Below, piece by piece: positions 1-36,628 of a DNA stretch of 64,000 nucleotides. Within the stretch, counting starts at the first letter, position 1; each line of letters starts with the position of its first letter. The notes beneath the pieces are model-generated. The model was not told the origin of the DNA, searched no databases, and saw nothing but the letters and a program-made list of their open reading frames with translations. This stretch comes from an uncultured Clostridia bacterium. GTDB taxonomy: Bacteria; Bacillota; Clostridia; Christensenellales; UBA1242. Position numbers and translations under genes: made by a program. Location of the stretch: positions 17,838-81,837 of the forward strand of contig CALBHW010000059.1 of the NCBI GenBank assembly GCA_937893125.1, read 5' to 3'.

Positions 1-1
1 A

Positions 2-3000
2 GCAAAATTTGAGTCTTTTGACGGAAATAATAAGGTTATTACAATCAAGAATTTCTCTCTTCCAGACCCAAGACTTACGTCAAATAAGGCAAATATTGGT
101 TTGTTTAGCACAATTTCATCGGGAACAATTGTGAAAAACCTTATCGTTGCGATTCCAAATAGTAAACGCGGAATTTACGAAAACGGCTCCACAAGACAAT
201 ATATTACAAATCTTGAAGCATATTCGTCGGTCAATTTCGGCGGAATTGCGGGTATAAACAACGGAATTATCACAAACTGTGACGTGGTTGCAATAAAATC
301 TAACCTTGAAAATGGTTATGTTGCGAACTTCTTGACAACCGCTCCATCGTCAGTTAATGTTGGTGGACTCGTTGGAACAAACAGTTCAAGCGGAATTATC
401 ACCAATTCGCGTGTTGGAAGAAAAGAAGTTGACATTTTAAGAACAAGTTATGTTGGTTCGGTAGTTGCGTCAAAAACGCGACTTCAAAACACAACAAACT
501 TCATTATGGCGCTTTATGGTGGCGGAAATGTCGGCGGATTTGTTGGTGTAAACGCGGGAACAATCTCGTCAAGTTATGTTGACAATTTGCAACTTGAAGT
601 TTATAGCGCAAGCGGAACATCTCCTATTAAGACAGCTGGATTTGCAGTTATAAACTCTGGTTACATCTATGGCTCTTATGCAAGTGGACCAGAAGAAGGT
701 GTAACAGGCAACTACTCAGTTTCAAGAAAACTTGGTGGCGGTATTTTCTCTAACGGTCTTGTATCTGGATTTGTGTTTAATAACGAAAATTACATTGCGG
801 ATTGCTATTCAAATATCAATCTTAGCGGAAATTACGAATTTGCTCTTCAATCGGAAAGAGTTTTGCATGACAAAGATTTGACCGATGTGTCATCGTCGCC
901 AGCGGTTGCGGGATTTGTGTATGTTAAGGACGAAAAATCTATTGTTAAGACATCATATTCACTTAGCAAAATCAAATCAAACAGCAGTTACGGGCCATTT
1001 GAAAGCCCAATCGGCGTTCAACTCAACACAAACAGCACTCAACTTGGCACAATTGAAAATTGCTACTATCTAAGAGAAGAAAGGGAAGATTTTCCAAGCA
1101 ACTTTGAAAGAGCAAAAGAGCTTTCAGACAATGCGGTCGTTGACTCTGAGGCAACAACTTTGTCGGGAATTAACCAATTTGCATTAACAAGTAGTTTTAA
1201 CGGCTTCTCATTTGACCCTGAAATTGATGATTTTAGCAACTTCTCAGGTCAAAGTTCGGGTGGCGTGTGGGCTATAAGAAAAGGTGAAAGCGGAAGTGGT
1301 TATCCAGAACTTATAAGCGCAAGCACAATTGCATTATCAAGTAGAATTTTGAACACTTCAAAAACGGACGGCACTCAAAAGAAATTCTTTACTTATATTG
1401 TCGACTACGAACTTGGTTCTTTAAATAACCCATATCTAATTAGCACAGCGGAACAATACAACAAAATTTTCAGCGACTATGCGGATAATTTGGAATATGA
1501 GAATACGGGTTCAAAGTATGTTTCAAATATAAGACTTATTAACAACCTTAATTTTAGTGGGCTTGAAGTTAAATCTACATCGATTGAATTTACTTCAATC
1601 ACAGGACAAATTTCGCTTTTCGATGGAAACTACCTTACTATGACGGGGCTTTCCTTGCAAGACACCAACGAAGGCAGTTACGCATTTGGTCTCTTTAAAG
1701 GTATTTATCGCGCGGGGGTTAAGAACTTAACTCTTGGCATTTCCGAAATCTCGGCGGGCTCAACAACGGCGGTCGGTGGACTTGCAGGTGTTATTGTAGA
1801 TAGTAACATTTCAAACGTTTCTCTTGTTCCAGCAGATGGCGGAAAGGGCGAAATATTCGGAAGAAATTATGTTGGTGCTCTAGCTGGAATTATCACTTCA
1901 AGTGACCCAGCAAGTAGAATCGACGAAGATAAGGACAAATTGTACTACATTTCTAACATCAATTCCACACTTTCAATTAAGAGTGACCAAGGTATTGACG
2001 CGTCGTCATCTCTTACGACGGCATTTAGAATTTGGCAAGATATTAGTCCAGTTTCAGACATTAGCGGTGTTTCTTCATCAGCGGGCAATTTAAGGCTTAA
2101 CAACCTTAACACAAATGTCGCATACGCTGGTGGCGTCGCGGGTGTTATCGACCTTAGACAAGACTATGTAACGAGTGGAAGTTCGGCAGTTATTTCAAAA
2201 GAAGTAGCATATAACATCCATGTCGGCGAATTCACTCCAACTACATCTATTATTTCTTCTTCAGCATTTAGTAATTCGGTTAAAATTTTGTCCAACTATG
2301 TCGGTGGATTGTTTGGAATGATAGGTTCGCAAACAATGGTTGCTAGGTCGGAATTTATCGTTGACGAAGATAGTTCTTTGTCGGCTTACAAGGTTGCGGG
2401 CGGACTTTCAGCGTTTAACTACGGAATGATCTCAAAATCATTTGTAGCGCACAACAAAGACAACAACCAAAGTGTTGACGAAGCACTTACAAGCTATATG
2501 GACGGCGGGAATGATGCTATTCAAATCAATTCGTCTTTGTATTCAAAGAGTAGCGAATACACTCCAAGATATATTGGCGGACTTGTCGGAATTAACGCGG
2601 GAAGTTTGGTTAACAACTCAGGTAGTATTATTGATTCATATAATAGAGTTGATGTGAGAAATCCTGGCTCTATTGCAGTTGGCGGAATCGTCGGCGGAAG
2701 TTATGTCGGTGAACTTAGAAATGTTTACACAACAGCAAGTTTGCTTGGCAACACTAATGCAACTGAAACCGTATATATCGGCGGAATAGTCGGAAGAATT
2801 TTTGATAGACCAACCGAAAATTTCTTTGTAGAAACCGCTAGCGGAAACAAGGTTTTAAATCTTAGCAACATTGTCGCTATGAATATATATAGCGAAAGCG
2901 ACTTTGACCTTTTGTACGAATTTGTAACACACAATGACGGGGCGATTGGCGCGCTTTATGGAAAATATATAAATCTTAAAGCGGACGGGACACAAGGAAT

Positions 3001-6000
3001 TGTGAGAATTGACCAAGGCGCAAGAGTTTACTTTAACCAATATGCGTTAAGGACATATGACGGAAGCGAAGTTTTCCAAGCGGGAAGAGACTCAACGTTT
3101 AATGTTGGCACATATATTACTGAAAAGGGCACAACATCTCTTATTAACCTTTGGGGTGCGTGCAAGACTGCAAGTTCTATAAATCTTTATGATAAATATT
3201 TAGCTAACTATATGGAAGGGTCGAGTTACTATGTTATTCAACCACATCAACTTTATAGGTTCTTGAAAAATGACGGTAATCCAGACTGTGCTCCACTTAG
3301 AAATACATACTTTGGTCCACTTAAATGGTCGAGAGATGTGTGGTCTTATAACGATGCTCAAATTCTTCCAACACTTGATTATGGATATAAGACGAGTGTA
3401 AGAAGAATTTACACAGCGCAAGAATTTATCGACGAAGTTTCTTCATCTAACAACTCCGAAATGACATATCTTATTATGAACGACCTTGATTTCAGTACCA
3501 TAGCATTTACTCCAATTAACAAGACTTTTGGCGGAAGAATCATCGGAAGTAGCGTTCAATATGTTGTGGACGGTGTGACATATTCAAGATATCCAATTTT
3601 GTTCAATCTTGATTATTCCTTGAATGCGGAATCGGCAACGAGAAGTTCTTACGCGTTATTCGAACACGCGAGCAACGCGACGATTTCAAATCTTAACATT
3701 GTCGTTAAGAATTACGATGTCAATTTTAGATCTGACCTTTCAACAACGGCAAAAGCGTCAGCCCTTATTGCTCTAGCGGAAGGCGTAACGCTTTCAAATG
3801 TCAATGTTTATAGTTCACTTCTTGGGAAAGTCTCGACTGTCGCGTCAAAATTGTCATATGCGTCATCGTTTAGTGGCGATTATAGCGTTACGCAAGGTTT
3901 GGCGGTTGATTCTGAGACGGGGAAATATACTCAAGCAAGTAGCGCGTATTTAAGAACAAAATATAATAACGAAACAAGACTTTATCAATATGTCGGAAAA
4001 CAAGGTAATATAGATGTTAATAGTTTTGTTATTCAATCAGTCACGGCGGAAGATGGTTCGTCCACTCCAGTAAGTGAAATAGCAAATATTCCAGTAAAGA
4101 CGGCAAAAATTAAGACAAACGCGGAATATTTTGGTGGACTTATTGCTTCAACGGGCGAAAGTACGGTTGTTATTGAAAATTGTAGCTCAAATATCGATGT
4201 TGAAATCGTTGTAACAAAGAAACTCAACAACGCTTACTACGGCGCAATTATCGGCGAAGGTAATGGCAAAATTAGAAGGTCGACTGCGTCTGGCGAAACG
4301 GGGACAAAGTTGTCCGTTCAATCAAGTTACAACCCAACGGGTGCATATAAAGATGTTGAAAATATGTATGTTGGCGGTATTGCAGGATTCTTCAAAGGCG
4401 AACTTGACTACATTTATATTGACAACTTGACAATTACGGTTGGCGGAAATCCAATAGGGAGTAAGAGCGAAAAAGCGTTTATTGTCAACACTCCAAGAGA
4501 AAGTGCGTCAGGTGGCGCGTATATTGGTGGTGTGGTCGGAAGCGCAAGCACATTTACTGCAAGCAAAGACTACACAAGTGGAAGTTTGAGCGAAATAAAT
4601 GTCACAAATATCAGAATTGAAACGACAGTTAAAGGACAACTCACCGTTGGTGGTGTTGTGGCTAGAAATGTCGCGACAATTTCTGGAATTTATATTAGAA
4701 ATCTCTCAAGTAGCACTTCGTCGGGCATTGTTGCTCATATTGACAACGGCTCAGCAAAGAATGTTTTAGGCGGTGTTGTCGGCGAAAATACAACATCGGC
4801 ACTTAGTGATGTTTATTCCAACCTTTCAATTAACACTATAAGTTCAGCATATGCTTCACTTTATGTGGGCGGTATTTTGGGACAAACAACTTCAACTATG
4901 GCACTTAGAAATGTCGTGAGTGACGCAAAAGCGATAACGCTTGACAAGATTAAGAAAGATGATGGCTATGACAATCTTGATTATGTCGTCATTGGTGGCG
5001 TTGTTGCAAGTGCTTCATCTCTTGAAGTTAGAAACATTTTGTCAACAGTTGACATTGTGGCTAGCCAAGATAGGGAAATGACTATTGGTGGCGCAATCGG
5101 AAATGTTGGGACAATTTCGACAGCGAATGCAATTGTTTTAGGGAACATTCTTCTTCGTCGTGGAATGGGCGTCGATAAAGACAGTTACTTCTATCTTGAC
5201 GAAGCGTCGAGATATAATGTCGGCGGATTTATCGGGAATGTTGAAACATCATTTGCGGTTTTGACTGACAATTCAAATCAAGAAAACCTTATTTTATCAA
5301 CAATTAGAGATTATGCGATAGGTCAAAAACTTGAAGTGTATGAAGGGAGTGTTATCGGCGGAAATTTGAGCAAAATCAATTTCTCGGGTCCACTTTTCAA
5401 AGTTTACTACAACGAAAATATTTCACTTGTAGCAAACAACAATGTTGTAAATCTCAGTACTCTTGCGACAGGACAAATTGTCGCGAGTGCGGACGACTTT
5501 ACATCTATTGACCAAGATGACTCGCTTATTACATTGTTTAAGGATATGCTCTCGAACTTCACATATTCTTCGGGCATTGTGCCACAATCAATTACTTATG
5601 TCGAAGGCACATCAACAACATTCTTTAACAACTATTATAGGGCAGTTGATAAAGAACCAGTTGTTGGTTCAAAACTTGCTCCACAAAAATTTGAAGGCGG
5701 AAATCCTACAAATAATACTTACTATGTTTTGGAAAGTGATTTGACATTAAGTAGTAGCATTTCAGCGGTAAACGGAAGCGATGTTTACACAGGCTGGGTC
5801 ATAAATTGCAGAGGTTTTGCAATAAAGGTTAGAAATGATAAGGGACTTGCTGTTTCGGCGTTTAGCGAAGTTACTGAAAATTCGGCAGTTGTCGGAATGC
5901 TTGTTACTGTAACTGATAATGTTGTTGATAATTTCTCGGCGATAGCGGATACAAATAACGGATTTATATTCTCTTGTGGCGTGTCGGGTAAGATAGCAAA

Positions 6001-16189: not shown

Positions 16190-16439
16190 GGCGAAGCCTA
16201 GAAAAGATTTTGCTTAATAAGGGGCAAATTAGAAAAATTTTAGTAGAATTTCTTTTAAGACATTTAGATTTAAAAGTTTTCAAAATTTGTCCCTTGTAGC
16301 AAAAACAAAACAATTTTTAGTTTTGCAATTAGAAAATACTTATAAAATCAAATAAAAAATATTTTTAAAAGGATTTTTTGGGATATTCTTTTAAAAATTT
16401 GTGAGTTTAGGGTAAAATAATAAAAGGAAAAGGAAAAAA

Positions 16440-25400: not shown

Positions 25401-28400
25401 GTCGACGGCTACACCTGGGTGATTATTGGCGGAAAACCACTTATTGTCTCAACATTAACGGATACAATAAGTATGCATAGTTACATTGGTAAAAAGAAAA
25501 ATTACTATCTTGATGACCAAGTTCTGTATAATTTGACTGAAGGGACAAAATTCCACACTGAAAGCACGGACGTTGGGCTAGAAAATAATTTGACCCTTAC
25601 AAAGTACTTTATTGAAAATACTGACGGCGTTTATAATGAAAAAGATGTTGTTTTCACAAAACTATACAACAAATCGCTTGCTCAAAGCACTTTTGAATAT
25701 AAGTTGGATAATGACTATTCATTGAAACTTGTGGCAAGTGAGACGGCGGAAGGCTTAAAATTTTCGTCAGCAGAATATGGCAACGGTGAAAAACAAATTT
25801 TGGATATAAAGGTTTTGTCAAAAGATAATATCTACATTGACCAAGATGACAATTTTAGGGCAAATGACACTGTCGTTATTGAAACCAATGACGCGGGCGA
25901 CATTTCAAGAATTACTCTTAAAACTCTTCAAAGCGCGTCCTATTACTATTCTGAAAATGTAAAGGATGTGTCTGAGCTTAAAGGAACAAGGACAAATCCA
26001 TATCTACTTTATGATTATGAGTCTTTTGTTGAGACATTGTCGGAAGATACGGACGGAAAGTTCTATAGACTTGTTAGAGATATTGATTTAGGAAACTCTT
26101 TTGTTAAGACATCTTCAAAGACATTTAGGGGCGTTTTACAAGGCAATCATATGACTTTGAGTAATCTTGCAATTTCCTACTTTAATAACCAAGAAAAAGT
26201 GGAAGATATGCATCTAAATCAAGAGTCATTCGGACTTTTTGCGGAGATTGCAACGGCAACAAAGGCGTCAATGCAAGATACGGTTATCAGTAATATTACA
26301 TTAAATGTGTCGGAAGTTATTTCAAATTCACACAAATATGTTGGTGCTTTATCAGGTAGACTCCTTGGTGGCAATGGCTCTAAAAAGATTTTCCTAAACA
26401 ACATAAACATTGTTGGAGATAGCAACACTTATCTTGCTGGCAAAAACGCAGTTGGTGCGTTGTCAGGGTTTGCAACGGGGAATGTTATTATAAAAGATAT
26501 TAACGTGTCGGCGTCTGTAAATGCGACATATAATGCACTGCTAAACAAAAAAGACATGCTGTACATTCGCGGGGCTTCGACTGACAAGGTGTCTTATGCG
26601 GGCGGAGTTGTAGGAATTTTCGATGTTACGGAAGTCGTTGACCCTTCAACCCTTAAAAACTATAACGCAAGTAATGTGAAAATTGACTCTTCGCGTGTTT
26701 ATCAAGGCAACATCGTCGGCTCGGCGTTTGGACTTGTTGGCGAAAATGCAATTGTGAATTATGTAAATGTTGAGTTTGACTTGGAAAGCAATTCTTACAT
26801 TAAAGCAACTGTCTATGCAGGCGGTTTAGTGGGTGAAAATAGGGGAAGAATTATAAGTTCTTCTGTAAAGTATCTTGGTCAAGAGTCAATGACAATGGAT
26901 ATCGCTCCAAGGCTTGACACGGCGGATAATATTTTCTTTGAAACACCAAACAACACCATTTCGGGACTCGGTGGACTTGTGGGGCTCAATAACGGTGGAT
27001 TTATTTCAAATTCCATTTCGACCCTAAATGTTAGAAACAAAACATCTGTCGTTGTCGGTGGCGCGGTAGGAAGAATGGTTGGTGGCGGACTTATAAATGT
27101 CGTTGCGACGGGCGCGGTTCTTGGTAGCAAAGTTGTTGGCGGGTTTATTGGCTCAGTCAATGATAGAGACATTTTAACAACGACCGAAGCGGGCTACAAC
27201 AAAAATGCTTTCCTTGACTTCACAAATTCTACGGTTAAAAAGAATTTTAATGCAAGAAGCGTTTATATGGGCGGAAATACTTTGCCAGATAATGTCACAA
27301 CACTTATTTCGTCTTGCGTTGCGGGTAATAACTATTTGTCAAGCGACTATTATGCACTAAATAATTTACTTATTTCAAATGAATACGCCTTTGCTGGATT
27401 TATTGGAATTATCGCGTTTTATTCAGAAAATGATGCAATAAGTCCAAATTGCAAAGATGCGATTATGTATGGCAATAAGAGTTATTTTGTGAACACACTT
27501 TATAGTTCTCAAAACACAAGTACCGTTTCAAAATATCTAAATTCAACCTATTATTCATCAAAACTTGATATTTTGTTTAGCAAAACGAGCGAAACAAACA
27601 TTTTGGGCAATGACGGCGAGCAAATGGTTTATCCATACAGAGTGCAAGATTTCTACTACGAGTCACAACAATCGGGTGTTTCTTATTCAATTAAAAAATA
27701 CACCAACACTCAAGAAGGAATCGACAGCCCAGTCATTTCAAGTGAACACGACAAGATTATTGATACAATTTACGAATTTGTTTCATACTCGCACGAATCA
27801 ATAAAAAATTCTTCCGAACTTTATACCGAAATTAACTACGACAAAGACGGTGATTGGAATACTGAATACAAAAACCGCTCCTACGACTGGTACAAAGCGC
27901 GTTTTGGAAAGTTCTATTATAAGAAAGTGGGCGAAAACATCGTAACGACAAACGATACAACTAGCGAATACGGCGAGTATATCCAAGTAACTGACACTGA
28001 AAGAGAAAACTTTATGAATTTCTATGAAGTTTCTAAAGATATTTTCGTAAAAATTTACTATATTTCAAGCCCAGTTGTGGAACATTTTGATTATTCAAGA
28101 AAGTTTACAAACACTAATAGCGAAATTTCTTTCACTGGCGAAAGCAAGGATAAAGTAAACGGCTACACATATAACAACCTTGACGAAATTAAAAAACAAA
28201 CGGCAATTATAATAAACGGCGTTCAAATTCCTATAACATTCAATGAAGGAGACTATGTAGAAGTAACGCAAGGTGAAGGGGAAGACAAAGAGTTTTTAAA
28301 CGGAACATACACTTCCTATCCAAATTTGACTCTTCCAAACGGGTGCGTTGTATCAAAACTTGTTTTTGAAGTGACTAAGGAAACCCTTGAAAATTCGGCG

Positions 28401-31400
28401 GTTACATTTGTTGTTAATAATGTTGAAATAACTTATTCTCTTACAAATGTTCCACTAAATAAAAAAGGTTTAACTTATCTTGAGTCGTCCTCTCGTGGTG
28501 AAGCGACTGCGTACGAACTAAAAGTTTCGACAAAACGCGTCATTTATAACGCCTACGAAAACGGCTACTGGTCATTTGATGATAACTTCTACTCAGACGA
28601 TTTCTCTCTTGCAACAAAATATCCAACAAACCTTGAGATTGCTGAGACTTACATTTGGAGTAGATTTGCTTCAAACGATGTCGGCGAGTCAATTAGGTCA
28701 GCAGAAGATTTAGCAAGAGTTGCAAGTAATGTCAATAGCGGGAAAAATAGTTATGAAGGAATAACATTGACTCTTGAAAATGACATTGATTTGAGTGGAA
28801 AATATTGGATTCCAATTGGAACGCTTGAACATCCATTTAAGGGCGAGTTTGACGGCAACGGGAAGAGTATTCAATATGTATCCGTAAATCAAAATTCAAA
28901 TGGTGTAACTTTTGATAGCACTGGCAATGTCAAATATGAGCCAACTCAAAATTACTTAGATTATTCGGGGCTTTTTGGTGTAATTAGTGGTGCAAACATT
29001 CACGACCTTTCAATCCTTGGAGGGGAAGTCGCGGGACTTGTTTCTGGCGGACTAGTCGGAAGGGCGGAAAATAGCACAATTTCAAACATCTTAAATAGAA
29101 ATAGCGCTTTTGGACTTGAAGTTGCTGGTGGAATAGTGGGCGAACTTGTGGGCGGAAGTTTGACAAATAGCAACAATTATGCACTAGTCACACTATCAAG
29201 CGTTGACGCACTTGATTTGTATGCTGGTGGGCTTGTGGGACAAGCGAAAGATACAACAATTGGTAATGATGAACATAATGTCGTTTCAAATTCGGGCAAA
29301 ATTACTGCGATTTCAACATATACAAGTTACATTGCAACAAATAGTCTTGTTAACTTGCATGTCGGCGGACTTGTCGGCAAAATGACAAATACAACACTAT
29401 CATACGCGCAAAATTCGGGGCTGATTAAGGTTCAAACAAACGCACATAAGCTGTACATTGGTGGAGCAGTAGGCGAAACGGAAAATGGCACCGTTCACGA
29501 TGTCAAAAATAACGGACAACTTGATGTTTCTCATTCTGGCGTTTATCAAGAGACGCATTCGGTGCTTGAAAACACTGCTCTTGACAAAGTGGAAAACGGA
29601 GAATACATTTATTCGACAGTTGATGTCGGTGGCGTTGTTGGATTATCAAGCAATTCGCTTAGCCTTTTGTCAAATTTGTCGTCAATTAAATTTGACGCAA
29701 TGTCGACAAATTCTTCGCATATTTCGTTAGGCGGAATTGTGGGAAGGTTAAAAAATGTTATTGATAATAAACTAACAGTTAGTGAATCTTACAATTCTGG
29801 AAGTATAGAATCTACATCCACGAATTCGACTACATTTGGGATCGGTGGCGTTGTTGGAACAATTGATTTAAACAAGTCAACTTTTGCTTCGTTTAGTGAC
29901 CCAATCGTTATTATATCAAACAACTACAATTCAGGTTCACTTTCAAGCGACAGCGTTTGTTTTGTCTACATGGGTGGCGTTGCTGGGTATGCTTATAACG
30001 AAAAAACAGTATCGCTTGGCGAATGTGTTATGCTCCAAAACAACATAAATATTGGATATGTAACAATTTATGATTATGTGGGGACAAGAAACGCGCTTGG
30101 CGCAATCATTGGTTCGTCAGCAAATTGCCTTCTAGTTAACCCATATGGCGATTTTAGTAGCGAAAATGTACTAGATAGAGTCTCATTTGACCTAAACAAC
30201 TTCTATTTGTCTGGTAGCGCGTATAGCGGAAGCAAGGTTTTCACTGGTTACTCAGTAAAAACTAGCGACGGGACATTTGACCCAGCAAGCGAAGTTGTTG
30301 ACGATAGTTTCTATAAAGAAGATAGCAAATTCTTCTTCTCGAAATCACTCTCTTCAACTGACCTTAAATTAAAAGCAAGTTTTGAAATGAGAAAAAAGAG
30401 TGAGACGGAAGATACAAGTTTTGCCTATGATTTTGATAACATTTGGGAACAAAAATATGGTACTTGGTATCCAACCTTGAAGAGAAATAAGAATACATCT
30501 TACTGGATAGATAATGCAAAAGAAGTTGTAACATCATCAACAGTTTACAATATTTCGACAGCAGATGAGTTGTCATATATGGCAAAAATGATAAATAGTG
30601 GCGAACTTGCAAGTTCAAACATCACAATTCGCCTAACTAAATCAATTGATTTGTCAAATAAGTTCTTTACACCTATTGGCACAACAAATAATCCGTTTAG
30701 AGGTACATTTGATGGCGGTTTCTACGAAATAAAGAACTTAACAATTGACGGCGATAGTAAGTATGTCGAATCGAACGGAAACGAAAGTTTTTCTAACGAT
30801 TTTGGTGGCTTGTTTGGTGTAACAAATGGCGCAACAATCAAAAATCTTGGCATCGAAAATCCTGTTGTTCAAGAAGTTTTGTATGCGTCGGGCGTTGTAT
30901 CTCAAGCAACGAACAGTTCGCTTGTCAGCTTGTATACTGATAGTGCGGAGTCAAGTCTTACGACATCTCCAAGTAAGATTGAAGGGACTTTTGGCGCGGG
31001 TGGAATAGTGTGTTCACTTATAAATAGCAAAGACTTCGGCAATGTCAAAAAGGGACTTTACAATAGTTACAACAATGTCTATGTTTTAGCGGGCGCGGAA
31101 AATGCTTCAAAAGTGGGCGGACTTGTAGGCGAAATGGTTGCAAGTTTCACCTATAACTGCTACAACAACTACTACGGCGTTGTGACTGTTACTGATTCTG
31201 GAACTTCGGCAGGTGGAGTCGTTATCGGAAGGGCAGACAAAGACAGTAAAATCGGAAATGTTTTCAATCTTTCACCAAAACTTAATTCCTTAAAAGGTAA
31301 TTCTGTTGATAACGGACCTGCGCTTTATAGATTGTCGCTTGAAGACGGCAAGGTTTACAAAACGGAAGAAACACTTTCTTTTGATATTTTGGAAGATTAT

Positions 31401-33320
31401 GTTGACAATCCAAAGAGCGAAATTTGGACAAAAGAATATAGCTTGAACCCATCGGCGGTGGCAAATTATCCTTCTCTTAGCGGTCTTAATAGAGAATGGA
31501 AAAACTCTCCAAGCGAAGCACTTATAAGTTTTGATTATGATGGCACGAACAAACAACCTATTTATAACTACATTGATAGCATAAAGAAAGTTTATAACGA
31601 TGAAGGCGTTTTGACATCGGGCAAACTTGAATATTCGCTTCCTAACTTCGCAAAAGATAGTTTCTATGACGCGGTTGTCAGAAAAATTTATCTTATCACA
31701 AGTGAAGAAGACCTTGTTTGGGTTGCGAACAATGTCAATAATGGAAATCTTTTGACATCGGGTGTTGAGTTTATGTTGTTAAAAGACCTTGATTTAAGTG
31801 GAAGATATTTCACTCCAATTGGGCTTAATAGGACATACTCATTCAACGGAATTTTCAACTTCAACGGACATGTGATTAAGGGATTAACTATTGATTCTAA
31901 CTTTGTTTATTCGGGACTCTTTGGTTACACACAAAATGCGCTTATCATAAATGGATATCTAACAAATGCCTTTATCAAAATTAGGGCTAATGTGCCAAAT
32001 ATGAAAGCGTACGCAGGGGCGCTTGTTGGCTTTGCAGAAAACACAAATATCAAAAATATGGTTGTTTCGACTTGCCTTACAATTTCAAGTAGTGGCGGGA
32101 CATATGTTGGCGGTGTGGTTGGATATTACACAAAATCAAAGACCACTTGCGGAATAAATAATGTTCGCGTATACGGTTCGTCAACCCATGTCGACCTAGG
32201 TGAATACAAAAGTCAAATTACCGAAAAAAGCATTCAAGAAGGCGAGGTAAGCATTGCGGGCTTCTCGGTAGATGGCGGAACATATGTCGGTGGCGTTGTA
32301 GGCTACGCGGTTGCGACGGCAAAAGACGAAGATGAAAAATCAAAAATTACAAGTCTTGTAAGTTACGCAACAGTAAACACGGTCGTTATCGGTCTTTCGA
32401 TGTCTCAACTTACAACCGCTCATGTAGGGGTCGGTGGCGTTCTAGGATATGGCGCAGACCTTGTAAAACTTGATGCGTGCTATGTTCCTGATACGGCAAA
32501 GGCAAAATCATATTCAAATAGATTTGACTCGGTAGGTGGAATTGCTGGCTACAACGAAAATGGTGAAATTAAGAATTGTAAATTTGACGGCTACGTTGAA
32601 CCAAGGTCATCGGACGGAAGGCTAGCGGGACAAATTTGGTCGTATGTCGGCGGAATTGTCGGAATTTGCGACGGCGGGGTTGTTTCTTCTTGCTTTACCG
32701 ACAAGGGAACGACAATCACAAATGCTTCAAATAAAGACTATTCGGCGGGTGCAATTATTGGGCTTGCAAGATATAAATCGTTTGCAAACGACGAAATTTC
32801 CGTTTACATTAACTCCACTTCAAGCGGGTTTGGTTCAACTGAAAAAGCAAATCCTGTTGGAAAAATCGAAAACGCTGATGGTTCATCAACGGCAGACAAA
32901 GATGTCTATAAAATCGGTTCTGGCGAAGTAACAAAGGACAACGGGTTTAGTTCGGAACTTTGGGGTACGGGTGGAGTTCTTAATTGCAAAAAGATTTTTG
33001 TTATGGGTGGCGGAAAAGAATCTTTTGACGCAATAACTGGCACTGGCGAAGCGGACTTCAAGTCTCTTCTTGCGCCTGGTGGTGTGGATACTCCAGCGGG
33101 AATTACAATTGACGACCTAAATACACTTATGCTTCGTGGCGTTTCAAGTGGAAAAATTGGGATTGTATATGTTATGGGCGAAACGCAAAATGGCACGCTT
33201 TCCTATGTCTACTTTGAGACTGATTTGACTGCGGACGACGCGAGTGAAATATCTATTTTAAACCACTTGGGATCGGGGCTTGCGGACGACGTAATTGTTT
33301 GCTTTATTACAAAAAAATAA
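16440..33320 (+). CDS. Giant predicted lipoprotein (5,626 aa) with Ig-like arrays and six cap+GLUG-like beta-helix modules; putative surface protein
   Basis: ATG is preceded by a purine-rich RBS (AAAGGAAAAGGA). The N-terminus MKRFFKSVLAFIFVLCCFSFIGCGD is a signal peptide with a lipobox-like FIGC. Big_2-like segments are present (e.g. VVSKNTSLVQVVRAGEDNAFVIV...GGDAIIEITASN). Repeated caps occur such as IRSAEDLARVASNVNSGKNSYEGITLTLENDIDLSGKYWIPIGTLEHPFKGEFDGNGKSI, followed by GGLVG/GGIVG/GGVVG rungs. TAA stop is followed by a terminator. Confidence 0.9.
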   Translation: MKRFFKSVLAFIFVLCCFSFIGCGDKYSDLKFSLSFSYSQTDTVEILSDGTRRVKTTGLVFDEKLDGNYTFYLSQKDVSQNKFPKATLKVSYSGYPSDFNFGATASSSNTEVLSNAISSRKSGDDAYLDITVCGVGQSELTVLNNETGRSQKIYVDVKGVASSLAFSQNNIAFANVSSENSKINLLSYLSTNDTTNLTFKFGVKNGENFTEYDSSTLSSTYGLSFDKSTGELSLDRKTTLSTLDVLAIYTSPIGDNLQAETRIRFLNDITDFNIYAGQSFEDTKNENNRINSESLLEFYSNLTDGSYKDLVLVAKSNGEKVKFDLSQNETFPFTTDIEISEVKYLTASLVSTTYDKATYAYQVVRVVASKNTEDKTKYGEDRSYNLVISCEYADYTVPSYPLFNTIKTKAYDLIKAFKVNNVKGALTFSDALEQDIFFNSSVVAGEKFFVEIYDQPTILQENSKFFVEFYDKDRAKLERVNDYLTVSYQEKNSQRVVTLENNDFGVLAFNKETTFYVKPSEGSTLRAGDKIYMAFRAQKPAEEQAVAFCFLNVCEGIENISKIDYSFNQFQIGDGDYVLDNDGNRIVDTVTDSSNFVKVDEHIYESEKTINLDSDVENVSAYVTLSYTPVTAKLSNLSVVSKNTSLVQVVRAGEDNAFVIVPQKVTSEGGDAIIEITASNLVDIYRIRVKVYTAINKLNVTLNDPKGTALIVNENGDVKSAIVEYQKRYDLSVSIQPVSKKYEIKYDVYRASKADDNLVGSLTCEYSDLTMSVINGVNSGLINDSKFSFDAHDFGFSFVDDTKESYILVLSIINANGTIIKREITLSSYVPVATMEVSSFRSSIYDANNIYYENKVLNNVINEKSLLLDESVFGVKVNLTGKGDKNPTYTFQNNGYITISIDGQKETTYKIQDGTLTSGSLGLGTKVKALSLSPIRFESGDTYYIFRLQEEYKSQNSIGSVLVTAGIEQFGNPNKVIEKSTKIDILPVSQVLGLTPSTTDINFKQGQTKPAEFQVALAGDKIKNDNLLTKVIGIKNFRNQTYYFESDGTDGLFSLSLSGADLTAKDYTLSVYSTFIGQGFAIFVPQDKVTTKENFDNFFNFSFVTISDLTLEEFVPRMFYILDNENNYVLAHSYEENRNYYLRVVDRDVLSSVYNDMAVVNFSVSDGLSIPYHISTLDDLLSIGESQESVTKNYILTKDIEIGNKNFAPIGNYYHVNLTEEQFTNRVDTYYINVDGSFVVASNYDEDNVYYAYGFNGTFTGKYVIPSLKGDDIIRYYDLTGINYEGVNPSNVDGIFARLGENGKISDLGLVFDTYNMSFASNAGGEEVTNVVGGLVATNFGRIENISVTFDGYFIKTEENLTLGGIIGVNYGTFDNSTIRNSAKTTGTIMIDSSKQNAELLIGGFVGENKGVVIGSNKVVDSFDIAYDDLGFDCNLILSVQDQSQNGEDSNKSSIGLVAGKSIGLISNFAINGRISASKMDNVGGIVGYIEYGELQVEDDGYALKDSYSIARVQGRSYVGGVIGQTFGRDSNLAVKVYNVSAENYDTMSYATRVFVRGKDYVGGLVGRAMYSKFEYSYVASYYKFDENSFDIEGDRLVGGFIGNAQNISVSQCASFINVEVGAGGTNGGLFIAMSSGVSAQNSFAYGYGKNLTTRNLGFAVSDYNTNQLYIIFYNVNEDNKLYVNNVENKTIDSISITENNYWKKAEEGSLIPYYLLKDGKPLMAVSPTIDATVKEVESYERFIGVTGQKAVVLFLVEDSSGVYTNEQIERLNTIDVGDIFDIDIDPLTYKTSKISISTTKPTDILTISDGKIVLKKEGNVTLKIASKLTTLSNTEIEIIVMKGVSDVKVYSNDSVLRDISGSTMEVVKNSPQTLYSRATYDRTLDGKNISFRASSKGIGVRFMIDKTNIPAEYKDNLNAILAFNNVGWENLPELDYQFVDIEDSTNITLIAKLAQENAIAISYIPFIRKTVSGVLTTILLDKLKGEFDLIIKSGATNIVIENNVDPNVVMGQLEKFSFVITAYTDVAGDTIEYYCDKVLDGTTIDVSSVKKSSSNGQISYTFTFFYVNKLEPLKESLYYTFEFYASSNPLSTKQITITITPQKDLNSISSRVYSERDKDFPQSPSQNNIIYNGRPALLTLEAYPYLADFTTLRLRYLTSSTKALSITQLEYNASQAGSGNMFSVNLNYGAEYDSTGALIVRKESAQDVYVGNGNGVYSYSRFFFFSLLIPSDTADKSVYNLIVDVVDSKGNIVFSQPIVLNTLSKTEVDLKFDERFKGADETYYLPVNTKQKLDVVTTNNYETANWEVSSTDVVLTQRQKEIFTPYLENGAYYVNTMNFSKNEFSTDLIGKTIKLTLTLDSGKTADAKSILFNLSLFTVTNISANGVTDGYMSVKNSTTTPLLVDIEAVYDESVVTSANNWYTTWFNKFGEDNSDSLYQLLTNSGYSIRENFADYIASLQEKVTKASFDSKAKDDSAFVSGVWLYKNAEGTLSALRCGSTYNNKTFGVENYEGYVAIYGYEEDVNSSLSLNVRLSYSNRKDSVTYRGIPNVENYNYDASVYSSVFTFSQDFILNFVSALSFYNPTPVSSVKEFMELENDESGDYRLISDLILTDFRPFEAKFKSFDGNNYKIYILSFADTSNESSSGSFGLFTNISSSTMICNTTVYYTSRVDYDSRIQGYVPRSTPMTLDISAYSSVRFGGLSVTNNGVITNCKVSGAVSIDSTRASSSSNLMGGLVSSNASSGFITNSKVIDFNFTASGQIGGFVGKNDGMIVSSAFENSQILGLSANCDIGGFVYENSGSISESFVQGARATTDSDIRNTGSGIISRLGGNIGAFVYANNATISDCYTNILASTSKNKSGFVYTDSGSSVISRCYSIFYKASGDNTTAIYPFVGPNGDDIPPRVVVNGTLNNCYYLTVKTSGYWATDLFYTSSSQTTSAYQTPDNKKAFGLEVDDFATHDSFANFDMSLKPNTVTVAYKQYYYVDGYTWVIIGGKPLIVSTLTDTISMHSYIGKKKNYYLDDQVLYNLTEGTKFHTESTDVGLENNLTLTKYFIENTDGVYNEKDVVFTKLYNKSLAQSTFEYKLDNDYSLKLVASETAEGLKFSSAEYGNGEKQILDIKVLSKDNIYIDQDDNFRANDTVVIETNDAGDISRITLKTLQSASYYYSENVKDVSELKGTRTNPYLLYDYESFVETLSEDTDGKFYRLVRDIDLGNSFVKTSSKTFRGVLQGNHMTLSNLAISYFNNQEKVEDMHLNQESFGLFAEIATATKASMQDTVISNITLNVSEVISNSHKYVGALSGRLLGGNGSKKIFLNNINIVGDSNTYLAGKNAVGALSGFATGNVIIKDINVSASVNATYNALLNKKDMLYIRGASTDKVSYAGGVVGIFDVTEVVDPSTLKNYNASNVKIDSSRVYQGNIVGSAFGLVGENAIVNYVNVEFDLESNSYIKATVYAGGLVGENRGRIISSSVKYLGQESMTMDIAPRLDTADNIFFETPNNTISGLGGLVGLNNGGFISNSISTLNVRNKTSVVVGGAVGRMVGGGLINVVATGAVLGSKVVGGFIGSVNDRDILTTTEAGYNKNAFLDFTNSTVKKNFNARSVYMGGNTLPDNVTTLISSCVAGNNYLSSDYYALNNLLISNEYAFAGFIGIIAFYSENDAISPNCKDAIMYGNKSYFVNTLYSSQNTSTVSKYLNSTYYSSKLDILFSKTSETNILGNDGEQMVYPYRVQDFYYESQQSGVSYSIKKYTNTQEGIDSPVISSEHDKIIDTIYEFVSYSHESIKNSSELYTEINYDKDGDWNTEYKNRSYDWYKARFGKFYYKKVGENIVTTNDTTSEYGEYIQVTDTERENFMNFYEVSKDIFVKIYYISSPVVEHFDYSRKFTNTNSEISFTGESKDKVNGYTYNNLDEIKKQTAIIINGVQIPITFNEGDYVEVTQGEGEDKEFLNGTYTSYPNLTLPNGCVVSKLVFEVTKETLENSAVTFVVNNVEITYSLTNVPLNKKGLTYLESSSRGEATAYELKVSTKRVIYNAYENGYWSFDDNFYSDDFSLATKYPTNLEIAETYIWSRFASNDVGESIRSAEDLARVASNVNSGKNSYEGITLTLENDIDLSGKYWIPIGTLEHPFKGEFDGNGKSIQYVSVNQNSNGVTFDSTGNVKYEPTQNYLDYSGLFGVISGANIHDLSILGGEVAGLVSGGLVGRAENSTISNILNRNSAFGLEVAGGIVGELVGGSLTNSNNYALVTLSSVDALDLYAGGLVGQAKDTTIGNDEHNVVSNSGKITAISTYTSYIATNSLVNLHVGGLVGKMTNTTLSYAQNSGLIKVQTNAHKLYIGGAVGETENGTVHDVKNNGQLDVSHSGVYQETHSVLENTALDKVENGEYIYSTVDVGGVVGLSSNSLSLLSNLSSIKFDAMSTNSSHISLGGIVGRLKNVIDNKLTVSESYNSGSIESTSTNSTTFGIGGVVGTIDLNKSTFASFSDPIVIISNNYNSGSLSSDSVCFVYMGGVAGYAYNEKTVSLGECVMLQNNINIGYVTIYDYVGTRNALGAIIGSSANCLLVNPYGDFSSENVLDRVSFDLNNFYLSGSAYSGSKVFTGYSVKTSDGTFDPASEVVDDSFYKEDSKFFFSKSLSSTDLKLKASFEMRKKSETEDTSFAYDFDNIWEQKYGTWYPTLKRNKNTSYWIDNAKEVVTSSTVYNISTADELSYMAKMINSGELASSNITIRLTKSIDLSNKFFTPIGTTNNPFRGTFDGGFYEIKNLTIDGDSKYVESNGNESFSNDFGGLFGVTNGATIKNLGIENPVVQEVLYASGVVSQATNSSLVSLYTDSAESSLTTSPSKIEGTFGAGGIVCSLINSKDFGNVKKGLYNSYNNVYVLAGAENASKVGGLVGEMVASFTYNCYNNYYGVVTVTDSGTSAGGVVIGRADKDSKIGNVFNLSPKLNSLKGNSVDNGPALYRLSLEDGKVYKTEETLSFDILEDYVDNPKSEIWTKEYSLNPSAVANYPSLSGLNREWKNSPSEALISFDYDGTNKQPIYNYIDSIKKVYNDEGVLTSGKLEYSLPNFAKDSFYDAVVRKIYLITSEEDLVWVANNVNNGNLLTSGVEFMLLKDLDLSGRYFTPIGLNRTYSFNGIFNFNGHVIKGLTIDSNFVYSGLFGYTQNALIINGYLTNAFIKIRANVPNMKAYAGALVGFAENTNIKNMVVSTCLTISSSGGTYVGGVVGYYTKSKTTCGINNVRVYGSSTHVDLGEYKSQITEKSIQEGEVSIAGFSVDGGTYVGGVVGYAVATAKDEDEKSKITSLVSYATVNTVVIGLSMSQLTTAHVGVGGVLGYGADLVKLDACYVPDTAKAKSYSNRFDSVGGIAGYNENGEIKNCKFDGYVEPRSSDGRLAGQIWSYVGGIVGICDGGVVSSCFTDKGTTITNASNKDYSAGAIIGLARYKSFANDEISVYINSTSSGFGSTEKANPVGKIENADGSSTADKDVYKIGSGEVTKDNGFSSELWGTGGVLNCKKIFVMGGGKESFDAITGTGEADFKSLLAPGGVDTPAGITIDDLNTLMLRGVSSGKIGIVYVMGETQNGTLSYVYFETDLTADDASEISILNHLGSGLADDVIVCFITKK

Positions 33321-33362: not shown

Positions 33363-33406
33363 AAAAAAATGCTAACTTTCTTTTTATCGAAGGTTAGCAT
33401 TTTTTG
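33363..33406 (+). terminator. Rho-independent terminator after the second giant gene
   Basis: 12-bp stem ATGCTAACTTTC (33369-33380) / GAAGGTTAGCAT (33389-33400) with one G-U pair and an 8-nt loop, followed by TTTTT. The upstream A-run makes it potentially bidirectional. Confidence 0.7.
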
Positions 33407-33608
33407 ACTTTTTTTTAAAAAAATAGTTGTTGTGATTTTTTTTAAAGTAGTTTTAAAAGATTGCGTTACTTTTTAATTTGTTTTTTTAAACTTCGTGTTT
33501 TTATGTTAAAATTATGTTATAATCGCTAAATAGCATTTCTTTTAATATGAAAAACATTTTGCTCGCGTAGCTATAAACTTTTTAATTTTGTTATCTTGGG
33601 TATGTATC

Positions 33609-33788
33609 TTAAAATAGACTTGTTCTGCTACAATTTCGGCAATTTTGGCAAGTTGTTGTTTGTGTGTTTTGTCCCATAAGTGCTAGGAGTAGTAGAAGTA
33701 AAAAGTTGGTGTTTGTGTTTAGGTTTGTGTCTGTCGCCGATGTGAAAATTGACAAAAGCAAAACGAGTAAAAAATAATTTGTATCCAT
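33609..33788 (-). CDS. Small hydrophobic peptide (59 aa) with C-terminal CxxCxxC motif, hypothetical
   Basis: Internal ATG (33788) of the 97-aa track ORF is preceded by AAAGGGGG with 4-nt spacing. Product: MDTNYFLLVLLLSIFTSATDTNLNTNTNFLLLLLLALMGQNTQTTTCQNCRNCSRTSLF. It has two short Leu-rich hydrophobic stretches and the tail CQNCRNC. It lies divergent from the ArsR-family gene. I recognise no homolog. Confidence 0.3.
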   Translation of the reverse strand: MDTNYFLLVLLLSIFTSATDTNLNTNTNFLLLLLLALMGQNTQTTTCQNCRNCSRTSLF

Positions 33789-34086
33789 AGAACCCCCTTT
33801 TAATAACAAAATTTTTTTATGCGATAGTATTTTATGAAAAACCAAGTGCTTTTTGTGTATGTTTAACTTTTTACATTTATTTTGATAGAAATTTAAGTAC
33901 ACAAAAAAAACAAGAAAAACTTGTTGTATAAAAAGAACAACGATTTTAGGTCCTTAATTTTGTAAAAACGAAAATGTTGTAATAGCCATTAAAAAAAATA
34001 AAAGCGCCACATTCGATAAAACAAAGCCTTTTTGTCTATATTTCGCTATTTTTTTTAAAAATCTTCTTTTTTAGTAAAAAAAATTT

Positions 34087-34095
34087 TGATATACT
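34087..34095 (+). promoter_or_regulatory. Extended -10 element (TGATATACT) upstream of the ArsR-family gene
   Basis: TGnTATACT lies 26 nt upstream of the ATG. No good -35 element was seen. Confidence 0.35.
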
Positions 34096-34120
34096 GAAAG
34101 TGAAAAAGTGGGGGTGAAAA

Positions 34121-36589: not shown

Positions 36590-36628
36590 CCTAAACGCAT
36601 AAAAATAACTATGCGTTTAGGTTTTTTT
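36590..36628 (+). terminator. Rho-independent terminator after uvrC
   Basis: Perfect 11-bp stem CCTAAACGCAT (36590-36600) / ATGCGTTTAGG (36611-36621), 10-nt loop, then T7. Confidence 0.75.

Follow-up and report, generated by a model that had tools for sequence, protein, structure and literature searches.

Two tandem giant genes of an uncultured Clostridia bacterium belong to a large family of predicted GLUG beta-helix lipoproteins

The window analysed here, a stretch of 64,000 nt from a contig of an uncultured Clostridia bacterium (CALBHW010000059.1), is dominated by two giant co-directional open reading frames, ORF1 and ORF2, which on recomputation take up 52% of its length, the same share as in the sequence-only reading that preceded this work. 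That reading had also given ORF1 as 5,395 visible residues open at the left edge and ORF2 as 5,626 residues, and both figures agree with the in-frame translation. The ORF1 frame is uninterrupted from base 2, its sole stop is at 16187-16189, and the window start falls within a cap motif (AKFESFDGNN...). The source contig, ENA ERZ27300227:k119_115835 with 122,710 nt, continues for about 17.8 kb to the left of the window. The features of the locus are as follows.

2..16189, + strand: ORF1, C-terminal 5,395 aa of a p1-type giant protein of about 8,000 aa (frame translation)
2..3151, + strand: ORF1 part of the core conserved in the family, with beta-helix units at aa 1-355 and at aa 457-1050 (BLAST to ORF2, alignment A2, module HMM)
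3368..5170, + strand: ORF1 cap and GLUG module, aa 1123-1723 (module HMM matches 1123-1294, 1285-1532 and 1525-1723)
7355..10378, + strand: ORF1 long GLUG rung arrays, aa 2452-3459 (module HMM, GGxxG positions, tile-to-tile similarity)
12284..15325, + strand: ORF1 distal GLUG rung arrays, aa 4095-5108 (module HMM, GGxxG positions)
15326..16186, + strand: ORF1 C-terminal 287 aa, without GLUG rungs (no Pfam match at E<=1)
16190..16439, no strand: AT-rich 250-nt spacer between ORF1 and ORF2 (sequence)
16440..33320, + strand: ORF2, complete p2-type giant predicted lipoprotein, 5,626 aa, ATG start (ORF list)
16440..16508, + strand: ORF2 signal peptide and lipobox, MKRFFKSVLAFIFVLCCFSFIG|C, with the Cys23 codon at 16506-16508 (hydrophobic window, lipobox pattern)
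16518..19910, + strand: aa 27-1157, about 10-11 predicted beta-sandwich domains of Ig-like type, modelled confidently as far as about aa 1105 (AlphaFold2, Foldseek)
19911..21569, + strand: ORF2 GLUG module 1, aa 1158-1710 (module HMM, Pfam Glug, C-cap regex)
21570..23984, + strand: ORF2 non-GLUG stretch, aa 1711-2515 (no Pfam match; kept within the p2-type subfamily, A3 consensus)
23985..27167, + strand: ORF2 family-conserved core, aa 2516-3576 (A2 alignment with ORF1, P0001 and P0002)
28680..29891, + strand: ORF2 canonical cap and GLUG beta-helix module, aa 4081-4484 (AlphaFold2 model m87ad989da838)
30531..31313, + strand: ORF2 cap and GLUG module, aa 4698-4958 (module HMM E 5e-40, cap phmmer match)
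31668..32990, + strand: ORF2 cap and GLUG module, aa 5077-5517 (module HMM E 9e-40 and 2e-15, Pfam Glug at tile residues 1564-1584)
32991..33317, + strand: ORF2 C-terminal 109 aa, weakly conserved in the A3 consensus (no Pfam match)
33364..33415, + strand: intrinsic-terminator-like hairpin, 17-bp stem and T-run, 44 nt past the ORF2 stop

ORF2 follows ORF1 directly, with no small ORF between them, and a purine-rich ribosome-binding stretch lies immediately 5' of its ATG. The two genes may be co-transcribed: a scan of the spacer returned no terminator-like site, although it found weak promoter-like sites at 16390-16418. No convincing gene was seen in the 700 nt 3' of ORF2. Farther downstream lie uvrC, murB, whiA, dnaE, pfkA, greA, holB, ricT, tatD and rsmA, as well as the sporulation genes spo0A, spoIIR, sleB and ypeB, so that the remainder of the window, earlier described as housekeeping, consists of housekeeping and sporulation genes. 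Neither an Rfam match nor secretion-system genes were found in the window.

The length of ORF1 had been put at more than 5,300 residues, which has to be corrected upwards. Its aa 1-5395 align end to end, at 79% identity, with residues 2592-7963 of a 7,963-aa relative (P0133), and it is 51% identical over 3,759 aa to the protein at L001. Since it is collinear with the C-terminal 5,372 aa of P0133, we estimate that the N-terminus is short by about 2,590 residues in the window and that the full protein measures about 7,960-7,990 aa. The opposite end of ORF1 is kept to the last residues in P0133, P0146 and P0149 and is not polymorphic; these final 287 aa, which like the final 109 aa of ORF2 match no Pfam family, would lie at the distal tip should the protein be anchored by its N-terminus. 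In polymorphic toxins and contact-dependent inhibition effectors a variable C-terminal toxin domain precedes a cognate immunity gene; searches of Pfam, NCBIfam and PDB sequences detected no toxin domain in the giants.

Rungs centred on GG[ILVF][IVA]G had been recognised in both proteins, and indeed ORF1 contains 48 copies of the motif and ORF2 contains 24, far above the 0.4 and 0.2 copies in residue shuffles. The additional statement that rungs often end in I.NC holds in a weaker form, as the enrichment is just mild (10 versus 3.6 and 7 versus 3.5). The strict cap motif is confined to ORF2, at aa 4087 and aa 5088; a further clear copy lies at aa 4704. A profile search adds degenerate caps at about aa 1158, 2560 and 3175 of ORF2 and about aa 457, 1123 and 2339 of ORF1. 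The claim that both ORFs are built from the same parts is thus limited to the profile level and fails at the level of regular expressions. In neither giant were BLAST-detectable internal repeats present, the repeats being highly diverged.

The rungs had been assigned to the GLUG motif, and the Pfam model (PF07581, gathering score 20.5 bits) exceeded its threshold in three of six tiles: ORF1 tile 1 (28.3 bits), ORF2 tile 1 (30.9) and ORF2 tile 3 (22.4), with no score in the other three. In ORF2 module 1 the best Glug stretch is aa 1331-1349, and a regular expression places the closing W...P.L C-cap at about aa 1703. The beta-helix nature of the arrays was examined on one ORF2 module, for which AlphaFold2 predicted a capped right-handed beta-helix (pLDDT mostly >85 with two short dips, residues 22-425 of the tile). 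Its top Foldseek matches among solved structures were 3n6z, 7uvk, 7uvl, 6xja and 6xjb. This module is therefore predicted to fold like solved GLUG-containing right-handed parallel beta-helices. The combination of cap and GLUG module also occurs in about 100 shorter extracellular proteins, where it is partnered with SLH domains, a T9SS tail, Listeria-Bacteroides repeats or flagellin.

The Ig-like arrays reported for ORF2 were likewise recovered by modelling. Its first ~1,100 aa, predicted from a 17-sequence alignment (A3), form about 10-11 beta-sandwich domains, almost all beta (mean pLDDT 81.5), which in Foldseek match titin, DSCAM, protocadherins/cadherin and the Bacillus S-layer proteins EA1, Sap, SbsB and SbsC at E 1e-21 to 1e-11. 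The sequence pattern of aa 1711-2515 suggests further Ig-like domains. In the core that follows, a conserved insert separates two beta-helix units of GLUG type that carry an asparagine/glycine ladder.

As to how the proteins are held, the sequence-only reading saw no LPXTG, SLH or choline-binding anchor at either C-terminus. Our searches agree: the pattern LP.[TSA][GAN] and a C-terminal hydrophobic window are absent from both ORFs, and no SLH or choline-binding/CW_binding domain was matched in Pfam. What was overlooked is the other end of ORF2. Its N-terminus, MKRFFK-SVLAFIFVLCCFSFIG-C23, fits the Gram-positive lipobox pattern, and the signal peptide is the sole strongly hydrophobic window of the protein; no hydrophobic segment was seen in the window part of ORF1. 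G22 and C23 are invariant in the subfamily alignment A4, and the mature start CGDKYSDLKF fits C-[GNDSK]-x-[KR]-Y-x-x-L, which is present in most family representatives. Lipidation and signal peptidase II cleavage are accordingly predicted for ORF2. A lipobox regular expression flags about 100 of 149 family representatives, and by a looser test 118 are both full-length and lipobox-bearing. Nearly all complete relatives begin in this way. The N-terminus of ORF1 lies outside the window; it probably carries a lipobox as well, judging from its relatives P0133 (79% identical in the shared part) and P0146/L001 (47-51% identical). Type V secretion exoproteins (autotransporters, TpsA/FHA) were considered and rejected, as Pfam matched neither a C-terminal beta-barrel nor an N-terminal TPS domain and the host, whose nearest genome match is an Oscillospiraceae MAG, belongs to the sporulating Clostridia.

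The two giants had been called a paralogous pair. The relationship is real, but the similarity was overstated, as BLAST aligns only ORF1 aa 1-357 with ORF2 aa 2621-2920 (34% identity) and aa 472-936 with aa 3182-3576 (25%). They represent two anciently diverged subfamilies, of about 8k (p1) and 5.6k aa (p2), with a core of about 1,000 aa and the overall layout in common. A profile of this core (A2, ~1,060 aa) retrieves more than 150 giants at E<1e-110 with HMMER, and the family counts at least 150 clusters (50% identity); its proteins, 3,400-8,000 aa long, are already in databases as unnamed hypothetical proteins. ORF1 and ORF2 are not isolated oddities; the earlier reading was right about the large coding investment and missed the large database family. 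A reading of the pair as orphans was discarded for the same reason: a word-indexed protein search gave two core matches and none for ORF2 aa 1-1157, and all its matches were of 1,298 aa or less, whereas exhaustive HMMER searches gave hundreds.

The layout of the family is regular. The core occupies ORF2 aa 2516-3576 and ORF1 window aa 1-1050, corresponding to about residue 2592 onward in P0133. Across all size classes of the 118 full-length representatives its median start lies at 2,250-2,720 aa, while the medians of the residues beyond it are 111, 1,530, 1,900, 2,955 and 3,730 aa by size class. Length variation sits distal to the core, which itself lies about 2,000-3,000 aa from the predicted lipidated N-terminus. 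Over its whole length ORF2 aligns collinearly with P0132 (55% identity) and with some ten further cluster representatives of 5.5-6.0k aa (31-39%). The tandem of an 8k-type followed by a 5.6k-type gene recurs in a distant relative (L016), where the C-terminal half of a p1-type gene ends about 130 nt before a p2-type gene 35-38% identical to ORF2. A second giant-giant tandem was found elsewhere (L017), next to rpoB-rpoC, and 3.5k-type relatives adjoin yabP and spoVT in two lineages. A three-gene array with a 3.5k-type gene upstream of ORF1 was considered and abandoned, since the 3.5k-type genes inspected stand alone beside yabP.

Both ORFs are intact and under purifying selection. In three independent assemblies ORF2 measures 5,626, 5,629 and 5,627 aa, and the two orthologues share identical HTH-uvrC-murB-whiA-dnaE synteny. 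Over about 2,950 codons of the ORF2 tail dN/dS is 0.064 (dS ~1.1), compared with 0.014-0.031 for uvrC, whiA and dnaE, and protein identity among orthologues is 86-88% versus 96-97% for the neighbours. The only DNA repeats are GGxxG-coding stretches of 30-42 nt at 60-80% identity, which makes a collapse of repeats during assembly unlikely.

The closest structural relatives of the ORF2 module, with the same capped GLUG-rung beta-helix, are the IgA1 proteases of S. pneumoniae (6XJA/6XJB) and G. haemolysans (7UVK) and BACOVA_03286 of B. ovatus, a putative IgA1 protease (3N6Z). The beta-helix of the S. pneumoniae enzyme has no catalytic role and is part of the N-terminal domain, which makes contact with the Fab of IgA1 (PMC7695701). 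IgA1 proteases are wall-anchored and have one helix per chain, whereas the window giants have many, are 3-4 times larger and carry a predicted N-terminal lipid anchor. Membership of the M26 IgA1 metalloendopeptidases (ZmpA/ZmpB/ZmpC) was rejected: HExxH occurs in neither ORF, no M26 Pfam model or IgA1-protease PDB sequence was matched, and PF05342 and G5 were not detected.

In size (5,000-10,000 aa) and in the Ig-like stalk, the window giants resemble Ebh of S. aureus, SiiE of Salmonella and the 7,651-aa adhesin of Mobiluncus mulieris. Such giant repeat adhesins rely on a T1SS, on LPXTG or on a membrane anchor at the C-terminus, and the tandem repeats that make them up are nearly identical, in contrast to the highly diverged repeats and N-terminal lipobox found here, and unlike these Ig-like proteins the window giants have more than half of the chain as beta-helix. 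To our knowledge, an N-terminal lipid anchor on a protein of 5,600-8,000 aa would be unusual against the giant adhesins compared. Ebh, SiiE and the Mobiluncus adhesin are described as the largest genes of their genomes, with presumed surface roles (PMC6272769, PMC10619420).

Two further giants are comparable by description. TasL of Vibrio fischeri is a very large lipoprotein and a selective cell-cell adhesion factor for T6SS killing (bioRxiv 10.1101/2021.04.26.440508). It offers a functional precedent for a giant lipoprotein as a contact factor, with no sequence relation claimed, although its host is diderm and it is T6SS-associated, unlike the window with its lack of secretion-system genes. 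Haloquadratum walsbyi secretes the giant protein halomucin (HmuI), the repeats of which match large exoproteins that frequently carry a GLUG-domain annotation; halomucin differs in being archaeal, in its CTLD domains and in not being described as a lipoprotein in that report (PMC3119063). A beta-solenoid in a surface protein of a gut Firmicute, the SRRP binding region of Limosilactobacillus reuteri (5NY0), ranked tenth in Foldseek, a weak match to the ORF2 module (E 0.07, probability 0.28). Glycosylation, export through the accessory Sec system and an LPXTG anchor characterise SRRPs, and none of these traits was seen for the window giants.

Starting from the lipobox, the predicted Ig-like and IgA1-protease-type folds, the family architecture and the recurring tandem, we suggest, with confidence slightly better than even, that ORF1 and ORF2 are members of a Clostridia family of lipid-anchored, long, semi-rigid surface fibrils with ligand-binding beta-helix faces. 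Each protein would be exported by Sec, receive diacylglyceryl on its lipobox cysteine and then be cut by signal peptidase II, so that its N-terminus holds it on the outside of the cytoplasmic membrane. The proximal stalk (about 2,500 aa; in ORF2 about 11 Ig-like domains, one GLUG beta-helix and the non-GLUG stretch in that order) would extend across the wall and further out and display the conserved ~1,060-aa double beta-helix core. Past the core would project the capped GLUG beta-helices specific to each subfamily, spanning about 2,000 aa in ORF2 and about 4,400 aa in ORF1. Their faces might bind glycans or proteins of host or dietary origin, or else other cells, and the co-directional pair would place two fibre lengths on one cell. 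Adhesion or coating seems the most likely role of such surface-exposed, extended fibrils; because neither giant contains a ligand-binding domain of known specificity, the adhesive role is argued by analogy.

A bolder version, which we regard as speculative and quite improbable, is that the pair builds a hitherto unrecognised two-tier fibrillar layer of gut Clostridia. The stalk would act as a ruler that sets the core at a fixed height, e.g. just outside the wall, the 5.6k and 8k arrays would reach two heights, and both proteins may interact via the core.

Rather unlikely, but the best placed of the rivals, is a non-adhesive protective coat or spacer, in which dense giant fibrils without specific ligands would screen the wall against phage, host factors, drying out or undesired contacts. 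The anatomy suits shielding equally well in most respects, no lectin or binding domain is recognisable, and the ORF2 protein outpaces its neighbours in evolutionary rate by a factor of 2-3, a behaviour shared with exposed surface layers. Analogues are the giant surface proteins of S. aureus and halomucin, whose database relatives include some with a GLUG-domain annotation (PMC3119063). On the other hand, dN/dS is low overall and the core is strongly conserved family-wide, which speaks for an interaction that is specific and conserved and against bulk filling, and the solved IgA1-protease beta-helix sits in a Fab-binding domain.

Surface-tethered enzymes are an improbable alternative, in which some beta-helix modules or unassigned stretches would work as polysaccharide lyases, glycosidases or proteases on polymers from the diet or the host. 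Pectate lyases, GH28 enzymes and tailspike depolymerases are right-handed beta-helices that turn up further down the Foldseek ranking, in some shorter matches GLUG modules occur together with PF05342, the N-terminal region of the M26 protease, and about 40% of ORF2 (aa 1711-2515, 3721-4059, 4490-4700 and 5518-5626) and several stretches of ORF1 are without an assigned fold. However, the enzyme matches reach only E 0.05-1 and a probability below 0.35, against 0.95-1.0 for the non-catalytic IgA1-protease type. The earlier observation that no catalytic motif is visible also stands. HExxH is missing, Pfam, NCBIfam and PDB sequences showed no catalytic family, and Glug was the sole family found; the NCBIfam search gave no match at all, and the PDB sequence search of both proteins returned nothing meaningful.

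Less probable still are sporulation-specific envelope parts, whether in the forespore intermembrane space or as spore-surface appendages or exosporium-like fibres. The host is a spore-former (spo0A, spoIIR, sleB, ypeB), and 3.5k-type relatives neighbour yabP and spoVT, but the link runs solely through gene neighbourhood, the window pair adjoins uvrC, murB and dnaE, another tandem lies beside rpoB-rpoC, and no spore-coat or exosporium domain was detected. The idea of mis-assembled repeats, or of pseudogenes staying open by chance, which drew on the metagenome-assembly source, the repeat-rich protein and a split tail on a related scaffold (L010), is essentially refuted by the lack of long DNA repeats, the matching lengths in three assemblies, the low dN/dS, the end-to-end collinear homologues at 31-79% identity and the finding that the supposed frameshift in L010 is a run of N in the scaffold and not gene damage.

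Under the preferred fibril reading, the fixed-length stalk and conserved core constitute a concrete structural hypothesis open to testing. The pair costs its host about 41 kb of coding sequence (about 24 kb for ORF1 at ~7,960 aa and 16.9 kb for ORF2), and the family sits in core-genome neighbourhoods (uvrC, rpoB, yabP). Given the at least 150 clusters, the cost of tens of kilobases, the purifying selection and these neighbourhoods, it is probably one of the chief determinants of the cell surface. Oscillospiraceae- and Christensenella-type Clostridia are mostly uncultured, and their contact with their surroundings is little understood. Paired giants of this kind had been thought uncharacterised, and we too found no study of the family in the literature on GLUG and giant proteins, nor a Pfam or NCBIfam model besides the 28-residue Glug motif; a family model there would improve the annotation of many MAGs. 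Other giants of Oscillospiraceae, recorded in a giant-gene survey, are of the RCC1 type and not GLUG lipoproteins (bioRxiv 10.1101/2023.11.21.568195), and the nearest item in the GLUG literature was a GLUG-domain protein that a functional metagenomic screen registered as activating NF-kB (PMC8480279).

Translation of the window confirmed the two giant, co-directional open reading frames described by the sequence-only reading, which together fill 52% of its length:

2-16189, plus strand: ORF1, 5,395 residues visible, stop-free inside, stop codon at 16187-16189, open at the left edge
16440-33320, plus strand: ORF2, complete, 5,626 aa

The GG[ILVF][IVA]G rungs number 48 in ORF1 and 24 in ORF2 (0.4 and 0.2 in shuffled sequence), and Pfam bore out their assignment to the GLUG motif: the 28-residue Glug (PF07581) was the sole match, and three of the six tiles exceeded its gathering score of 20.5 bits (28.3, 30.9 and 22.4 bits). 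The cap, the first of the module parts ascribed to both ORFs, was found by the strict regular expression in ORF2 alone (aa 4087 and 5088); additional caps came to light with phmmer and with a profile made from homologues in databases, in ORF2 (4704, ~1158, ~2560, ~3175) and also in ORF1 (~457, ~1123, ~2339). The non-rung stretches had no Pfam match even at E≤1, the giants had none in NCBIfam, and PDB sequence searches with both proteins returned nothing.

HExxH and LPXTG are, as had been noted, absent from both proteins, and no hydrophobic segment was found in either except the N-terminus of ORF2, an anchor signal that was overlooked when no anchor was seen at the C-termini. It reads MKRFFKSVLAFIFVLCCFSFIG, followed directly by CGDKY, and in it a basic n-region leads into a hydrophobic core and the lipobox; G22 and C23 are invariant across the alignment of ORF2-like (p2-type) proteins. 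A lipobox regular expression flagged about 100 of 149 family representatives, usually with C-x-x-[KR]-Y-x-x-L next, and under a looser test 118 scored as full-length and lipobox-bearing. The family giants are predicted to be lipoproteins tethered at the N-terminus, which would make the C-terminus the distal tip.

A profile of the ~1,060-aa conserved core (A2), built from ORF1 aa 1-936, ORF2 aa 2516-3576 and the database relatives P0001 and P0002, was searched against 1.84 billion cluster representatives. It matched 8,382 at E≤1e-3 and 858 at E≤1e-30; the best 150, all below 1e-110, are giants, and the weaker matches will include generic GLUG proteins. Sequence databases already list family members, either as hypothetical proteins with no name or as ‘GLUG motif-containing’ proteins. 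The medians per size class point to a plan of lipid anchor, stalk of ~2,500 aa, conserved core and variable distal extension.

Size classes of the 118 full-length, lipobox-bearing representatives among the best 150 A2 matches (medians)
3.2-4.1k aa: 64 representatives; core start 2,457 aa; 111 residues past core
4.1-5.2k aa: 9 representatives; core start 2,254 aa; 1,530 residues past core
5.2-6.1k aa (ORF2 type): 22 representatives; core start 2,505 aa; 1,900 residues past core
6.1-7.2k aa: 7 representatives; core start 2,400 aa; 2,955 residues past core
7.2-8.0k aa (ORF1 type): 16 representatives; core start 2,717 aa; 3,730 residues past core

About a dozen representatives of 5.5-6.0k aa align collinearly with ORF2 over the full length (31-55% identity). 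The description of ORF1 and ORF2 as a paralogous pair holds for their common core (34% and 25% identity) and modules, but their likeness goes no further, and they belong to two old subfamilies and are not a recent duplication. ORF1, reported as longer than 5,300 aa and indeed open at the left edge, is probably much larger when complete. All of its 5,395 aa align with residues 2592-7963 of the 7,963-aa relative P0133 at 79% identity, with coinciding C-termini. In an Oscillospiraceae MAG locus from a genome-collection scan (L001), 61% identical over ORF1 aa 1-400 and 51% over 3,759 collinear residues, the ORF begins with a lipobox and has 2,523 codons ahead of the counterpart of window residue 1. 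This collinearity puts the predicted complete ORF1 at about 7,960-7,990 aa; the source contig, reaching ~17.8 kb left of the window, has room enough for its start.

A scan of JGI metagenomes with p2-type N-termini recovered a second such tandem (L016, Ga0247841_10000512). Its upstream giant is visible for 3,288 aa or more, aligns collinearly with the C-terminal half of the ORF1-like (p1-type) P0152 and P0157 and ends ~130 nt before a p2-type gene only 35-38% identical to ORF2, which indicates that the 8k-then-5.6k order is conserved over a long evolutionary distance. The window scan found no terminator-like hairpin between ORF1 and ORF2 and a strong one past ORF2 (33364-33405); co-transcription of the two genes is possible. 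Another family tandem, from a different lineage (L017, 1-18433), consists of one giant visible as its C-terminal 1,321 aa or more, followed by the 4,732-aa P0224; it lies directly upstream of rpoB-rpoC, and a terminator hairpin and an AT-rich promoter region separate the giants. The 3.5k-aa members P0145 and P0165 are single genes divergent to yabP in two lineages (L012, 10001-20908; L018, 10001-20716). The neighbourhood is conserved: upstream lie dus, a murJ-like gene and hbs, with spoVT in L018 alone, and on the downstream side L012 and L013 have queH.

An artefact is a less likely explanation of the giants. The only repeats at the DNA level in 1-33400 are 30-42 nt long, encode the GGxxG rung and share 60-80% identity, and thus offer nothing that assembly would collapse. 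The source contig of the window (ENA ERZ27300227, k119_115835, 122,710 nt) carries a gene call for this 5,626-aa product, and in close relatives from other samples the orthologues measure 5,629 aa (Logan SRR29834390) and 5,627 aa (SRR30770035), with identical synteny to an ArsR-type HTH gene, uvrC, murB, whiA and dnaE. Among these genomes ORF2 is 86-88% identical (~2,950 comparable codons) versus 96-97% for uvrC, whiA and dnaE, and its Nei-Gojobori dN/dS is 0.064 versus 0.014-0.031 for housekeeping genes (dS ~0.7-1.2). The pace of ORF2 evolution is two to three times that of core genes. Given its intact orthologues and low dN/dS, ORF2 is a functional gene under purifying selection. An apparent split of this gene in scaffold L010 proved to be a run of N.

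With ORF2 aa 4060-4719 as query, 103 shorter proteins were found, most with PF07581. Their other domains vary (PF05342, the M26 N-terminal region; Listeria-Bacteroides repeats; SLH; T9SS tail; flagellin domains), so the module is a widespread extracellular one. AlphaFold2, given a 40-sequence alignment, modelled tile residues 22-425 (ORF2 aa 4081-4484), with pLDDT mostly above 85, as regular beta rungs preceded by a helix cap at the N-terminal end. The best Foldseek neighbour in the PDB was 3n6z (E 2.8e-5), the B. ovatus protein BACOVA_03286, labelled ‘putative IgA1 protease’. Next came IgA1-protease structures from G. haemolysans (7uvk, 7uvl) and S. pneumoniae (6xja, 6xjb), and below these ranked generic beta-helix enzymes and tailspikes (E above 0.04, low probability). 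The beta-helix proposed for the GLUG arrays is thereby supported for one module. An enzymatic role of the giants is less likely. The S. pneumoniae IgA1 protease has a non-catalytic beta-helix (residues 781-1070) within its N-terminal domain, which binds the Fab of IgA1 and controls access to the active site (PMC7695701). Several modules end in W...[YF]P.L, and such closures suggest a series of discrete capped helices and not a single continuous solenoid. The Ig-like arrays noted in ORF2 were also supported: aa 27-1157, aligned with 16 subfamily representatives, gave a nearly all-beta model (mean pLDDT 81.5) of ~10-11 domains of ~100 aa, which matched titin I-band, DSCAM, protocadherins and the Bacillus/Geobacillus S-layer proteins EA1, Sap, SbsB and SbsC (E 1e-21 to 1e-11 overall).

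An export signal with lipobox, an Ig-like stalk and multiple capped GLUG beta-helices are thus observed or strongly predicted in the giants, as are purifying selection, a core-genome location and the lack of any detectable catalytic, toxin or wall-anchor domain. We suggest that the giants would be lipidated and would reach out from the membrane, across the wall, as long fibrils, whose beta-helix faces may bind external ligands. The Fab-binding domain of IgA1 protease offers a precedent for such binding, and TasL of Vibrio, a large lipoprotein, for selective cell-cell contact. The main rival is a non-adhesive shielding role, for which halomucin is an analogue, with relatives that include proteins annotated GLUG-domain. 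Giant bacterial surface proteins of Ig-like and beta-helix repeats are already a known kind. In the literature searched, we found no description of the GLUG giant lipoprotein family as such, and the anchoring of proteins as large as 5,600-8,000 aa by a lipid at the N-terminus, the fixed-length stalk with conserved core and the conserved two-size tandem appear undescribed.

The remaining window genes serve housekeeping and sporulation (uvrC, murB, whiA, dnaE, pfkA, greA, holB, ricT, tatD, rsmA, spo0A, spoIIR, sleB, ypeB); the last four show that the host was rightly called a spore-former. A spore-surface role for the giants is less likely. GC skew is positive throughout, in keeping with nearly all genes lying on one strand. 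The following were also noted downstream of ORF2:

33406-34120: ~700 nt from the ORF2 terminator to the ArsR-type gene, with no convincing gene and no Rfam match
33609-33902, minus strand: sole ORF in that gap, low-complexity, 97 aa
33749-33778: promoter-like site, 11/12 match
34121-34462: 113-aa ArsR/HTH_20-type regulator between ORF2 and uvrC, its position kept in all related contigs inspected (L005-L009)
36611-37651: 346-aa ORF between uvrC and murB, no Pfam or NCBIfam match
51973-53001, 53354-54760, 57543-59054: three ORFs of 342-503 aa amid sporulation/housekeeping genes, no NCBIfam match

The 346-aa ORF keeps its synteny in related genomes, at 84-87% identity versus 96-97% for its neighbours and a dN/dS of ~0.10-0.12. 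The G+C content of ORF1 (39-41% in 1-16000) exceeds that of most downstream genes (31-35% in 34000-64000), which fits the coding of glycine-rich (GGN) rungs and does not require a foreign origin.
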